DNA from: Okamejei kenojei
Taxonomy: Eukaryota
DNA length: 64,000 bases
Assembly (NCBI GenBank): GCA_035221665.1
Contig: CM069142.1
Coordinates: forward strand, 34,410,001 to 34,474,000
Direction: 5' to 3'
The notes below the pieces were generated by a model. It had not been told where the DNA came from. It ran no database searches and saw only the letters and a program-made list of their open reading frames with translations. The first letter of the stretch is position 1. Each line of letters opens with the position of its first letter. Positions 3,062 through 64,000 of this stretch are shown piece by piece. A program made the translations under genes and the position numbers.

Positions 3062-3690
3062 AGGGGCGGCACTGTGGCACTTGCTGCCTTACAGTGCAAG
3101 AGACCCGGGTGCTGTCTGTATGGAGTTTGTACGTTCTCCCTGTGACCGCGTGGGTTTTCTCCGGTTTCTTCCCGCACTCCAAGGATGTACATGTTTGTAG
3201 GTTAATTGGCTTTGGTAAAATTGTAATGTGCCATAATGTGGAGGATAGTGCAAGTGTACGTGGTCATCACTTGTCAGCACACTTGTCCTGGGCCTCCTCC
3301 ATGGCCAGAGTGAGCTCCACCGGAAATTGGAGGAGCAGCACCTCATATTCCACTTGGGCAGTCTGCACTCTAGCGGCATAAACATTGACTTCTCCAATTT
3401 CCGGTAGCCTTTGCTGTCCCCTCCCGTTCTCAGCTCTCCCTCTGCCCTCGGGCTCCTCCTCTTCCTTTCTCCTTTCTTCTCCCCACCCCACCCTACATCA
3501 GTCTGAAGAAGGGTTTTGGCCCAAAATGTTGCCTATTTCCTTCGCTCCATAGATGCTGCTGCGCCCGCTGAGGTTCTCCAGCACTTTTTGTCAATCTTCA
3601 ATTTTCCAGCATCTGCAGTTCCTTCTTAAACACGTGTCGGCACCGACTCGGTGGAGCGAAGGGCCTGTTTCCGCACTGTATCTCTGAAGC
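3062..3690 (+). mobile_element. HE1/V-SINE interrupted by a Penelope 3' fragment (~3280-3632)
   Basis: SINE head and V-domain; insert with KLEEQHLIFHLG-like GIY-YIG tail and hammerhead-like motif; SINE tail resumes at ~3635. Confidence 0.65.
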
Positions 3691-4369: not shown

Positions 4370-4800
4370 CATACCTGCCAACTTGTGAGAATGAAAAATC
4401 GGAATCCTATTAGTCTGACGTCAGTGAGGGCGGGGCACGTGACGTCAGTAAGGGGCGGGGTACGTGACGTCAGTAAGGGGCGGGGTACGTGATGTCAGTG
4501 AGGGCGGGAAAGTGACGTCAGTGCGGGGGGGGGTAAGTGACGCCGAACGCCACCGTGGCGGGGCGGGGTCATGCGGCTGCGTGCTGACGCACACCCGTGC
4601 GTGCCCCCATAAGCGGCGCAGGCGCGGTGCGCTCTCTGGCTGTCTCCTCGTCGCCGCCGCCGCCATGGGTCGCATGCACGCTTCCATCCCAATTCCGAAT
4701 TCCAATTTTTTTCGGAATATTGAGGAAAAAAATCGGAATTCGGAATTGGGATGGAAAAATCGGAAGAATTCCGCCCAAATCGGAATGGTTGGCAGGTATG
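4370..4800. mobile_element. MITE, hAT-like, inserted in a minus-strand V-SINE
   Basis: TIRs CATACCTGCCAAC / GTTGGCAGGTATG; 6-bp TSD CACACT (4364-4369, 4801-4806); subterminal AATCGGAA repeats. Confidence 0.8.
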
Positions 4801-8721: not shown

Positions 8722-8774
8722 GGGGTGGAGGATTGCAACCTTCACGTGGTCCGCCCTGTTTCGACTAATGCAAT
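8722..8774 (+). ncRNA. Predicted minimal HDV-like (CPEB3-type) ribozyme
   Basis: P1 GGGGUGG/CCGCCCU with G1-U wobble, P2 AUUGCA/UGCAAU, P3 ACC/GGU, L3 UUCACGU, P4 reduced to U(UUCG)A, J4/2 CUAA with catalytic C. Confidence 0.72.
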
Positions 8775-8862
8775 AAACTCGAAGTGCACAAACGGAAGAT
8801 CAAATAGAACAAGTTGTCCCAACAACTTTAGGCTGTGCACGCCACACGAAAGAAGAAGAAGA
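8722..8862 (+). mobile_element. Short non-autonomous retroelement with HDV-like ribozyme head and (GAA)n tail, copy 1
   Basis: TSD AAGAATGCAT (8712-8721) / AAGAGTGCAT (8863-8872); near-identical to 16721-16854. Confidence 0.8.
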
Positions 8863-15670: not shown

Positions 15671-16720
15671 TTACATTTGTAAGGGTCCTGACCCGAAACA
15701 TCGCCTGTCCATTCCCTCCACAGATGCTGCCTGACCTGCTGAGTTCCTCCAGCACTTTGCGTTCAGCTCTTGATTCCAGCATCTGCAGTTCCTTGTGTCT
15801 CCATTTGTTGCTTACAATCTTGTGATCTGGAACTGACTGACAGGGAAGTGGGAAATGATTCATTAGTAATTGTCATGAAGAAATTTGACAGAGAGAATTC
15901 TCAGGACATTGGGGAGTGGGAAAATTGGGTAGTCCATGAAAACAGCCGTCATGGGCAGAGTAATTGTAATTTGCTTGGTTGAACAAGAGTTGACTACCTC
16001 ACCCAGCCGACATGGTTAACATGCCCAAACATATTGTAGAAGGTGCAGCTTGATATATGTGAGCTCTGTGGGCCGTGTAGACTGATCTTATGGAGAGGGA
16101 GTGGAGAAATGAGTCAATACGAACTCCACAATGTGAAAGTGAAGGCAATGCCAAGTTAGCATTATCTTCTGGTTTAAAAATTAAATAATTTCTGTTTCCT
16201 CCACAAGCACCATAAAAAAATAAAACTGAAATTAGAGGCAGACAAGGAGTAATCTATCTATATTACTAAAAGTCTGATCTTGACCACTTCCTGTTGTTCT
16301 GTATATTAATTTTAGAAAAAATGCTGCCATTTACGGCTGTGATTTTTGGCCATCTTATTCAGAGTCCCCCTCCGCTGGGCAGGACAAGAGGATTTTTCCC
16401 ATCGATGAAAACTAAAAAAGTTATTAGTATTTCAAAAATGTTGAGATTCTCTCTCCTGTCAATCACGCCATGAAGGCCACGCCCCTTCTGGTGGGGGGGG
16501 AGGGACTATAAAACCCAGAAGTGTGGGCGGTGGCTCAGTCTCTGCAAGATGGAGGAGGGAGAGGTCACGACTTTGTCTTTAGTGGCTTTGCACCCTGCTT
16601 GAAATGGTATGAAACTGCTCTTGAATTTGGTGGCCTTGCACCCTGCTTGAAGTGGTAAGAAACTGCACTTGCATTTGGTGGCCTTGCACCCTGCTTGAAA
16701 TGGAATTTCAAGGAATAACC

Positions 16721-16774
16721 GGGCTGGAAGATTGCAACCTTCACGTGGTCCGCCCTGTTTCGACTAATGCAATC
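16721..16774 (+). ncRNA. Predicted minimal HDV-like ribozyme (one P1 mismatch)
   Basis: GGGCUGG/CCGCCCU, P2 GAUUGCA/UGCAAUC, P3 ACC/GGU, L3 UUCACGU, CUAA. Confidence 0.65.
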
Positions 16775-16854
16775 AACTCGACGTGCACAAACAGAAGATC
16801 AAATAGAACAAGTTGTCCAACAACTTGTAGGCTGTGCACGCCACACAGAAGAAG
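16721..16854 (+). mobile_element. Short non-autonomous retroelement with HDV-like ribozyme head and (GAA)n tail, copy 2
   Basis: TSD AAGGAATAACC (16710-16720 / 16855-16865); inserted in a Helitron-like element; same 5' start as copy 1. Confidence 0.8.
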
Positions 16855-17349
16855 AAGGAATAACCGTGAGTCAACTGCCAGCCCACCAGCCGTGAGTGAG
16901 TGAGCTGCCAGCACAACAGGCTTGAGTGACTGAGCCGCCAGCCCAAAAATCCATTTGGCCCACAATGTCCATACTAGCCCTCTGGAAACCAGTCCCTTCA
17001 GCCCACAACACCCATACTAGCGCTCGAGAAAGCCCCCCACTGGCCACCAATATTGGAATTGGTGGAGAGGTGGAATATTGCGTTGGGGGACCAGCCCTCC
17101 CGTGTGATGCTGAGACCCAACGGCTCCCACTTAGCTTAGTAGGTAATATATTCTTGTGATAATAATTTGCCAATTCTACTCAGTCAATACGTAGAAACGA
17201 AGAACTGCAGATGCTGGTTCATACCAAAGATAGACACAAAGTGCTGAAGAAGGGTGTAGGTCCTGATCCGAAATGTCACCCATCCTTTCTCTCCAGAGAT
17301 GCTGCCTGACTCGTTGAGTTCCTCCAGCACTTTTTGACTCGGTCAAAGT

Positions 17350-18355: not shown

Positions 18356-18551
18356 CGAAATATGCTGGAGAAACTCAGCAGGTGAGGCAGCATCTATGGA
18401 GCGAAGGAAATAGGCAACGTTTCAGGTCGAGACCCTTCTTCAGACCCCAAACATCGCCTATTTCCTTCACTCCATAGATGCTGCCTCACCTGCTGAGTTT
18501 CTCCAGCATTATGTCTACCTTTGATTTTCCAGCATCTGCAGTTCCTTCTTT
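18356..18551. mobile_element. Penelope-derived fold-back short element
   Basis: Inverted arms around a hammerhead-like motif; TSD AGCCATTATTGTAG (18342-18355 / 18552-18565). Confidence 0.75.
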
Positions 18552-19704: not shown

Positions 19705-20115
19705 TGTAAGTTAGTTCAGTAAAACACCGAGTCAAGCACTGGACCACTAAACTTTATTTTTTAAACAATAACAAACTCCCTACACAATACCTAACCACCG
19801 GGGGTCTGATCCCTGTCTCTGCTTGTTCATGCCCTTCAGCCTCATGAAACAGATATATCCAAAAGGTTGCAAAGTCCCAAACACCCCTCCAGAAGACAAC
19901 GATCCTAGTGGGGATTACTTTTTATAGGTCATCGGACCCTGTGGGGCAGAATTACATGGGGCTGGCAACCCCTACAAACCAATCACACATATTGATCACC
20001 TTATGCAGTAATTGACAGTTCCCCAACCCAATTACAAGGTACCCCATTACAATGTTTCTACAGAAGCCTCTGGAAAGAAGTCAGTTGACCAAGTAATGCA
20101 ACATTTCCCCAGGTA
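19705..20115 (-). repeat. 3' LTR (upstream U3 part missing)
   Basis: Matches ~32907-33314 at roughly 95% by eye; TATA box and AATAAA on the minus strand; ends ...TTACA. Confidence 0.8.
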
Positions 20116-26521: not shown

Positions 26522-26691
26522 GTTACACAAAAAGCTGGAGAAACTCAGCGGGTGCAGCAGCATCTAAGGAGCGAAGGAGATAGGCGACGTTGCCTATCTC
26601 CTTCGCTCCTTAGATGCTGCTGCACCCGCTGAGTTTCTCCAGCTTTTTGTGTAACCCTCGATTTCTCCAGCATCTGCAGTTTCTTCGTTAA
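26522..26691. mobile_element. Penelope-derived near-perfect fold-back element
   Basis: ~70-bp inverted arms centred near 26588; TSD CACTTCAATATGAGG (26507-26521 / 26692-26706). Confidence 0.8.
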
Positions 26692-60595: not shown

Positions 60596-60732
60596 ATTGT
60601 ATCTATATAGATTCTGGATAAGTTGTTGTCTTGCTTTTTTAGAATAAAGTTCCACTTGCGTTGGAATGATTTTGTGAGGGAATCGAGAAAGCATACAGCT
60701 GTAGTTCCTCACCTATTTATTTCTGGTTACAG

Positions 60733-61110
60733 AGACGTGTATCGCTCAAAGGCAGGTGATATTACCAGAAGGGCCCCTTGTTCGGGCCGAAGGGCGTCAC
60801 ATCACGATTGAGTGTGAGGTGCAGGGAACACAGCCGTCGCAAGAGCAGAGCTTCGAGTGGTCTGTCATCCTCCCGGAGAGGCCCACGTGGAAGATTCAGA
60901 TCATCAGCACTCATGATCCTGACTACACATACGCCATGTACAGCCAAAGAGTGAAGTCTGGGGAGATCTACGTGGAGAGAATCACAAGCATCTCTGTTCG
61001 GCTACACATCACCAACCTGCGGAAGAGCGATGAAGGCATGTACGAGTGCCACACCCCCAACATGGAGGAGATATACTGGGGATCTTACAATGCATTAATA
61101 AAGTTAACAG
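60733..61110 (+). CDS. CD101: CD101/IGSF2-like exon 2 (Ig V domain 1)
   Basis: AG/GT-bounded, phase 1. AQRQVILPEGPLVRAEG...QIISTHD...YAMYSQRVKSGEIYVER...YECHTPN...GSYNA matches domain 1 of CD101/IGSF3. Confidence 0.85.
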
Positions 61111-62014
61111 GTAGGTTACCTCTACTTTCTGTTCAGCTGTCGGGTCACACAGCGCATGGTGGAATAACGGTTAGACCGCATTGGGAGTATTACTCAACAA
61201 GTCAGGCAGTACCTGTGGAGAGAAAAACAGACTCAATATTTCAATATCTCCATTTACCCCAATCAGAATGTTATCCTCGGGTTTCCAGCATGAAGCAATC
61301 TGTAACGTTCTATTACAAAACTTCCCAGTATGTCGAATCGCAATATTGTGTAATTCTATTAAATGTTTTAAATCTAACAAAAAGTGCAGATAGATTCTTG
61401 TCAGCAAGTATGACTATGAGGTTTGTGAGACTGTACTGAGAAGGTAGGCATAGGTCTCAGTTATACAGCACAGAAACAGGCCCTTTGGCCCAACTCACAC
61501 ATGCCGACCAAGATGCGACTACATTTGGCCCATATCACTCTCAACCTATCTTGTCATCATACATGCCCAAATGTCTTTTAAATATTGTTCTTGTTCCTGC
61601 CTCAACGACCTACTTCGGCAGCTTGTTCCGTGTACTCACCACCCTCTGTGTGAAGAAGTTGCCCCTCAGGTTCCCATTAAATCTTTCTCCCCTCATCTTA
61701 AATCTATGTTCTCTGATTCTTGATTCCCCTACTCTGCGTAAAAGATTCCCTGTATTCACTTTATCTATTTCCCCTCATGATTTTATACACCTTTGTAAGA
61801 CCACCCCTCATCATCCTGCACTCCAAGGAATAAAGTCCGAACCTACCCATCCTCTCCCTATAACTCAGGCCGCCAAAGTCCTGGCAACATTCTCATAAAT
61901 CTTCTCTGCTCTCTTTCCAGGTCAATGACATACCTCCTACAGCAGGGTGAACAAAATTAAACAAAACACCGTATATAATCCATATGCTGCCTCACCAAGG
62001 TGTTGTGTGATTAG

Positions 62015-63100: not shown

Positions 63101-63635
63101 CATAGATCAAAAATGATAGTAGGATTAGGCTATTCGGCCCATCAAGTCTACTCCGTCATCAATCATGGCTCACATCACTCCCTCCTAACCCCATTCTCCT
63201 GCCTTCTCCCCATAACCTCTGACAGCAATACCAATCAAGAATCTATTTATCTCTGCCTTAAATGTATCCATTTGCTATTATACAATGGCAAGACACCGTA
63301 TGGCCTATCAGTGTCTTGAGCCAAGAGAAATAGGACAGGAATAATTGGCTTGAAGTATGATGAGGGTTTGACGGCACTGGGCCAGCATTCGCTGTTTAGA
63401 AGGATGAAAGGGGATGTCATTGAAACTTTCCAAATAGTGAAAGGCCGAGAAAGAGCAGATGCAGAGGGAAAGATAGATCAGACATGATTGAATGGCGGCG
63501 TAGATTTGATGGTCAAATGGCCTAATTCTGCTGCTATGACTAATGAACTTATCAGGGAACTACTGAGATCCTGTTTGTGCCTTGATATACGCGGTGTGAT
63601 GCCTTCAAGTGATTCTAAGACATGTCTTTCTCTAG

Positions 63636-64000
63636 TTATTCCAGATACACTGAGTGCAACATTGGTGCCTCAGGTCATCAATAAGGTGGAAGGCGATTCG
63701 CTGGAGCTGGTCTGCGAGGTATCCAAACAAACGCCGTACCACACGCATGTGGCCGTCACATGGTACCTGGAGAAGGGAGGTCAGGCGGTCCAGGTCATCG
63801 CTCTATCGCAAGATTTCATCCTGAGTGCAGGAGAGCTGTACAAGCAAAGGCAGGAGTCGGGAGACGTGAGATTGGACAAGATGGGTGCCACCTCGTTCCG
63901 GCTCACCGTCCACAAGTTACAGAGGTCCGAGCAGGGGCAGTTTCACTGCCAGAGTGTGGAGTGGATGCAAGATCCAGACAAATCCTGGCAGGAGCTGTCT
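63636..64000 (+). CDS. CD101: CD101/IGSF2-like exon 3 (Ig domain 2), runs off the window
   Basis: TCTAG acceptor; (V)IPDTLSATLVPQ...LVCEVSK...HTHVAVTWYL...LSQDFIL...FRLTVHKLQRSEQGQFHCQSVEWMQDPD, close to CD101 IPDTLSAT...EWIQDPD. IGSF3 paralogy is not excluded. Confidence 0.85.

Follow-up and report, generated by a model that had tools for sequence, protein, structure and literature searches.

Retroposons reduced to the two termini of a LINE include NARTc (from L1Tc), RIME (from ingi), the SIDERs, the R2 SIDEs, and derivatives of Vingi-1_EE (PMC5786205, PMC4035085, PMC3414825). Deleted elements headed by a ribozyme have precedent (PMC3414825, PMC4035085), and 5' ribozyme cleavage has been described for L1Tc, SIDERs, and R2 SIDEs (PMC4035085, PMC3414825, PMC6765202). 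The skate element analyzed here belongs to the bipartite non-autonomous LINEs (PMC5786205). Like them, it consists of the two ends of a LINE, carries a predicted HDV-like ribozyme at its first base, is flanked by target site duplications (TSDs), and has no ORF. It differs from them in its length of 135 bp and its abundance of at least 9,341 copies, and what appears to set it apart is a predicted ribozyme without P4 together with complementary ends that are predicted to pair.

The minimal HDV-like and theta ribozymes have, as here, a 54-nt fold without P4 and a C in J4/2, and nearly 99% of the minimal HDV-like sequences in that account lie in phages, often beside tRNAs (PMC10879173). Unlike the phage ribozymes, the skate head starts a retroposon and its LINE and adjoins no tRNA. 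We rejected a theta ribozyme as its identity, since that would need a phage cleavage site adjacent to a tRNA and no tRNA was found. The mammalian CPEB3 ribozyme (RF00622) aligns with the skate head with an identical L3 and a U-U beside the single P1.1 pair. CPEB3, however, is a single intronic locus, and the skate family is a mobile one without P4 that reaches 21 bits with this model. For paired ends, the nearest precedent that we found is the cyclization of Ty1 (PMC7969010), in which CYC5 and CYC3, like the pairing ends of flaviviruses, are complementary sequences at the ends of the genomic RNA, as in the skate element. Ty1 is an LTR retrotransposon, however, and flaviviruses are viruses, whereas the skate elements are non-LTR elements with a predicted clamp whose 5' arm follows the ribozyme and whose 3' arm lies at the stop codon. 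Within the journal articles that it covered, a literature search returned no end pairing for non-LTR elements, including Vingi and Ingi, and no Vingi ribozyme.

The window (the whole 64,000-nt stretch of Okamejei kenojei DNA that was analyzed) holds two copies of the element, and their features are collected in Table 1.

Table 1. Positions in the window of the two element copies, their parts, and the host repeat (RNA helices are given as 5' strand/3' strand).
Feature	Position	Strand	Remarks
Host non-autonomous Helitron-like repeat	16253..17139	+	5' TC at 16253 or 16257; 3' hairpin and CTAG-like end
Mini-retroposon copy 1, same family	8722..8862	+	92% identical to copy 2
Mini-retroposon copy 2	16721..16854	+	Young subfamily; one extra G at 16827
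Left TSD of copy 2, AAGGAATAACC	16710..16720	+	11 bp; 12 bp with G at 16721
Right TSD of copy 2	16855..16865	+	Extends to 12 bp with G at 16866
5' LINE-derived segment	16721..16792	+	Element positions 1-72 in young form, 1-77 in old form; 80-92% identity
3' LINE-derived segment	16813..16854	+	Last codons, stop, 3' UTR, GAA tail; 86-90% identity
Predicted 54-nt P4-less HDV-like ribozyme	16721..16774	+	From descriptor, Rfam, and column counts
Predicted P1	16721-16727/16750-16756		Element 1-7/30-36; G1-U36 wobble
Predicted P2	16730-16736/16768-16774		Element 10-16/48-54
Predicted P3	16737-16739/16747-16749		Element 17-19/27-29
Predicted L3	16740-16746		Element 20-26
Predicted P1.1, single pair	16742-16757		Element C22-G37
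Putative catalytic C	16764		Element C44, followed by AA in J4/2
5' arm of predicted end-pairing stem	16782..16789	+	8 bp here, 10 bp in old subfamily; in parent 5' UTR
7-bp hairpin spanning the deletion junction	16810..16826	+	From direct sequence and sister-copy fold
3' arm of predicted end-pairing stem	16833..16840	+	Just past the parent's stop codon

The first-pass annotation had described copy 2 as an independent insertion, within a Helitron-like element, of a sequence sharing its start, ribozyme core, and complete P2 with copy 1, and this description agrees with what we found. The copies have separate TSDs (16710-16720/16855-16865 for copy 2; 8712-8721/8863-8872, 10 bp with one mismatch, for copy 1), their P3/L3/P1'/J4/2 core is identical, and P2 is a full 7 bp in copy 2, with a G-A mismatch at its end in copy 1. 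The copy 2 insert measures 134 bp against a family length of ~135 bp. Because its TSD reaches 12 bp through the G at 16721/16866, G1 may derive from either the target or the element.

Helitrons have a 5' TC, a 3' hairpin followed by CTRR, and no TSD. Across seven aligned copies the host repeat has ends of this kind, TC at one end and a hairpin with a CTAG-like end at the other, which places copy 2 inside a Helitron-like element; the repeat has 2,900 candidates genome-wide. None of 19 other host copies is filled, and the target is present once in those copies. Contigs from four public runs (four organisms) span the insert and also break at 16721 into unrelated sequence, and RNA ends cannot be read from such contigs. 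P1 of copy 2 contains a C-C mismatch from G4C, a change present in 0 of 62 tail-selected copies; going by the fold, this P1-breaking change has probably weakened or impaired the copy 2 ribozyme. The flagged copy itself is ordinary and adds little beyond the family-level results. In a further mini copy (L013), the insertion site is the 3' hairpin of a Helitron-like repeat. Elsewhere in the window, two exon-like Ig V-set frames (60705-61436 and 63488-64000, +) lie on the same strand as both mini copies, and near-perfect inverted repeats at 26538-26639, 4682-4756, and 18373-18498, which come from head-to-head repeat copies, have only sub-threshold microRNA-type Rfam matches.

From two copies 8 kb apart, a high-copy family had been suspected. 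A 19-nt tail pattern gave 9,341 exact matches in the 2.76-Gb genome, against 0 for the control; the exact pattern is biased toward young copies, and given a divergence of 3 to 6% per copy, the family total is probably near 20,000. To avoid selecting by 5' end, we examined the 5' ends of tail matches taken in genome order along contig C1, using the first 68 that were usable. Before counting, we dropped one match without the motif (L194) and one duplicate (L089, of L086), and five 5'-truncated copies were left out of the column counts. Alignment began at position 1 in 58 of the 68 copies and within 2 nt of G1 in 63; the remaining five begin at positions 8, 17, 36, 82, and 107. The common start proposed in the first-pass annotation is thus a property of the family, and most copies do not extend upstream of G1: the longer relatives are the parent LINE, which is longer internally and starts at the same G1. 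Other odd 5' ends, L042 and L142 among them, were considered as LINE and rejected, as they look like truncations or inserts of other repeats.

TSDs of 8 to 15 bp (median 11 bp) adjoin G1 in 48 of 62 near-full copies, compared to 1 of 62 in a swapped-flank control, and their first base is A in 34 of the 48, which fits annealing of the tail to the target. The family thus has the variable TSDs, simple-repeat tail, and empty sites expected of a SIDE inserted by target-primed reverse transcription. Two subfamilies were distinguished, a young one (29 copies, 94% pairwise identity) and an older one (18 copies, 89%). One insertion on contig C2 (142-150 Mb; L220-L223, L225-L229) has identical flanks and has been amplified at least nine times inside a larger repeat; G4C is present in some of its units and absent in others.

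The mini combines ~77 nt from the start and ~43 nt from the end of a 3.0-kb Vingi-like LINE, joined by a short linker that repeats the end of the 5' segment. Positions 1-77 and 93-136 match the two ends of parent copies (L471, L474, L475, L432), as expected of a SIDE. The full-length parent copy L471 spans 3.0 kb, beginning at G1, ending in the GAA tail, and flanked by an 8-bp TSD (head at 164-240, tail at 3171-3203), both ends are also present in L474 and L475, and the family of L432 and L433 ends in the element's last ~43 nt, including the last codons and stop. Pieces of the parent ORF (L432) match Pfam Exo_endo_phos_2 and RVT_1. An ORF-start search gave 44 candidates; of 30 loci, 12 have the head directly upstream of the ORF, and 6 others have it in partial, inverted, or rearranged form. 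Parent copies with inverted or rearranged 5' segments include L432 (3456-3524), L452, L451, and L456, arrangements resembling those of twin priming. We searched for the parent LINE with three exclusion patterns and recovered nothing but minis that were deleted, truncated, or interrupted; protein searches from RF00622-headed LINEs gave about a dozen related families, with the parent only among the weak matches.

Vingi elements have a compact single ORF with an APE endonuclease and RT and, unlike Ingi, are without an RNase H domain (PMC13708176). The parent has this architecture: a compact single ORF with EN and RT, a short 5' UTR, and no ORF1 seen. All parent copies read are broken, and two post-RT pieces (L433, L377), both decayed, gave no Pfam match, which on decayed sequence says little about RNase H. 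We call the parent Vingi-like, a clade name that follows its architecture rather than an RT tree. Young minis are 94% identical pairwise, against 91% among the seven parent copies compared; because the minis look younger, the identity of the mobilizing protein is uncertain. Another, very young Vingi-like family (L377, L391-L420) is possibly still active: about 80 of 150 protein matches are 97 to 100% identical, and 34 matches are identical over a 111-aa C-terminal piece. Since this family has the last 13 nt of the old tail in common with the minis, and the minis look younger than their parent, the helper may have changed.

Several other Vingi-like elements carry related heads. In full-length Vingi-like LINEs (L171:147-3243 on contig C14, L172, L111, L114), the first base is G1 of a head scoring above the CPEB3 cut-off (up to 66.8 bits). 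CPEB3-like heads at L121, L125, L128, L129, L138, L115, L113, L117, and L140 have C-terminal LINE pieces within ~1 kb, often inverted, and appear to be more deleted or rearranged derivatives. A second mini family of ~165 bp (L132-L135, L137, L139), for which no parent LINE was found, starts with another P4-less head that exceeds the CPEB3 cut-off; it also has a 12-bp end stem, and its inner hairpin is placed as in the 135-bp mini.

The fold predicted for the head has the features that define HDV-like ribozymes: nested P1, P2, P3, and P1.1, a G1-U wobble, U..G in L3, and C followed by AA in J4/2. An HDV descriptor matched the window only at copies 1 and 2 and gave 0 matches in 40 Markov-resampled 64-kb controls. 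On a 171-nt stretch, Rfam returned CPEB3_ribozyme (RF00622) at 21 bits (E 0.0014); as the gathering score is 35, we did not assign the head to RF00622, and a whole-window Rfam scan gave no ribozyme match. Genome-wide, RF00622 matched 42 places, 30 of them above the cut-off and up to 66.8 bits, several of which head LINE-like ORFs. Rfam HDV-type matches were found at 6 of 12 Vingi-like loci. The same fold in other sequences, with all pairs kept, heads the Vingi-like elements L171, L111, L377, L372, L473, and L459, and in four families (L171/L111, L377, L372, L473/L459) the P1, P2, and P3 sequences differ yet pair. Of the 31 loci supplied, the descriptor recovered the head belonging to the family in only 10 (its match at L478 is a mini copy), and it missed the heads of families B, D, G, H, C, and K and of the sister mini, which were assigned by eye.

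The reading in the first-pass annotation, with a P1 consensus that is probably GGGGCGG and was lost to CpG decay, amounts to a free-standing "ribozyme SINE" whose 3' stem is local. A few selected copies (L164, L238, L253, L318) do have C at position 5 of P1. Among the 62 tail-selected copies, however, position 5 is T in 61 and C in none, unlike genuine CpG cytosines, which are retained in 52 to 58 of the 62. The position 5 partner is A in all 7 parent LINE heads scored (U-A) and G in 53 of 62 minis (U-G). Given also that both ends of the element and both arms of the stem are LINE-derived, we consider the free-standing reading very improbable, and both its P1 consensus and its origin are contradicted by these data.

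All pairs and key bases of the predicted ribozyme are intact in 34 of 62 mini copies. Because an RNA of 135 nt would be copied full length anyway, the common 5' end shows that the RNA end is defined, not how it is made. We infer that self-cleavage 5' of G1 by the HDV-like fold would make this end. Alternatively, an internal promoter in the head could set the 5' end, with the HDV-like fold inherited and weak or unused in the mini. Pr77 of L1Tc is promoter and ribozyme at once (PMC3383444), a fixed start is possible without cleavage, P1 of the mini has changed from U-A to U-G, and a pair or key base is broken in 28 of 62 copies. Against a promoter, families with unrelated heads (L171, L377, L471, L480) also start at the P1 G, and the changes in the master lineage preserve the fold (U-A to U-G, A/G in J1/2, and U/G/A at a free J4/2 position). 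There is also no tRNA head: ARAGORN found none (0), and Rfam gave no tRNA, 5S, or 7SL match on the 171-nt stretch. We regard the promoter as unlikely and favor cleavage by the ribozyme.

The 8-bp stem that had been annotated as a 3' stem has its arms at 16782-16789/16833-16840, and it is not a local structure: in the parent LINE ~3 kb separates the arms, the first lying a few nt downstream of P2 and the second immediately past the stop codon. Of 57 scorable mini copies, 49 have every pair of the 8-bp core and 18 have all 10 bp paired, counts that come from tail-selected minis and are biased toward an intact 3' arm. A single A-C mismatch near the stem end, present in 26 of the 57, is carried by the young subfamily, so the pairing is not being tightened.

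We compared 25 nt after P2 with 32 nt before the tail in Vingi-like families, taking the median duplex energy over natural copies. The complementarity was noticed by eye first and the windows were chosen afterwards. In 9 of 10 families the cognate duplex is the best-ranked one (mean -14.8 versus -7.4 kcal/mol; 0 of 200,000 permutations), and the same holds for 9 of 11 when only LINE families are used (mean -14.2 versus -7.1 kcal/mol; 0 of 50,000); the families share ancestry and are not fully independent. Shifted windows gave 2,696, 40,092, 7,192, 39,110, and 49,993 of 50,000, which removes the signal in four cases and all but removes it in the remaining one (2,696). Family C joined the set once the window rule had been fixed and ranks first, with a duplex of 12 bp that includes G-U pairs. 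Family K, represented by one decayed copy and also added later, ranks 4-5, family G ranks second, and the parent family drops to second once the sister mini is included. The anchors of the test missed L393, L493, L495, L505, and some parent tails.

Overall, the sequence data suggest that the two ends of the Vingi-like RNA likely pair as a clamp. The same sequence signal would be produced by inverted DNA sites bound during integration, and a by-product of 3' end priming on, or copying from, the 5' UTR could likewise leave complementary ends; a 6-nt palindrome within the stem arms of the parent family would suit such a site. The arms are unrelated in sequence between families, however, whereas a protein site is expected to be conserved; families B, C, E, G, and H have bulges, internal loops, and G-U pairs, which suit an RNA helix; and the arms keep a fixed position, with a few nt between P2 and the 5' arm and between the 3' arm and the tail. 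We consider this DNA-level or by-product origin improbable and prefer RNA pairing.

Considering all the evidence together, we think it quite probable that the mini is a retroposon formed by internal deletion of a Vingi-like LINE (first ~77 plus last ~43 nt), and that its RNA is likely cut by the ribozyme at G1, likely has paired ends, and is likely copied by a Vingi-like RT/endonuclease. The two-part origin, the G1 boundary, the 8- to 15-bp TSDs, the GAA tail, and the family-specific complementarity of the UTRs are directly supported. In the mechanism that we envisage, the mini would be transcribed by read-through inside longer host RNAs, and the predicted ribozyme would cut 5' of G1, freeing the element RNA. 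Pairing of its ends would then keep the conserved tail motif available for priming at the nick. The duplex would set the ribozyme-capped 5' end beside the single-stranded 3' tail, such that the protein may take only two-ended templates, and a Vingi-like protein would copy the mini into new sites. On a more general proposal we are evenly divided: Vingi-like LINE RNAs may be closed by a 5'-3' helix between the ribozyme and the priming tail, and this clamp may be a cis-signal required for retrotransposition and the first cyclization element in a non-LTR clade. It would explain two-ended minis, the mini itself being a P4-less ribozyme, a clamp, and a tail in 135 nt.

The cross-family end pairing is the result most worth testing. 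Why only RTE, Ingi, Vingi, and R2 give rise to two-ended non-autonomous elements is stated as open in the account of bipartite elements (PMC5786205), and for Vingi, an end-to-end helix that covaries provides a direct answer that can be tested. Anole Vingi-1 is under development as a gene insertion tool whose templates carry both UTRs as flanks (PMC13708176), and an end clamp with a 5' ribozyme, if true, would bear on the design of such templates. In addition, a large animal genome would, with this family, contain thousands of P4-less HDV-like ribozymes, a form described so far chiefly in phages (PMC10879173).
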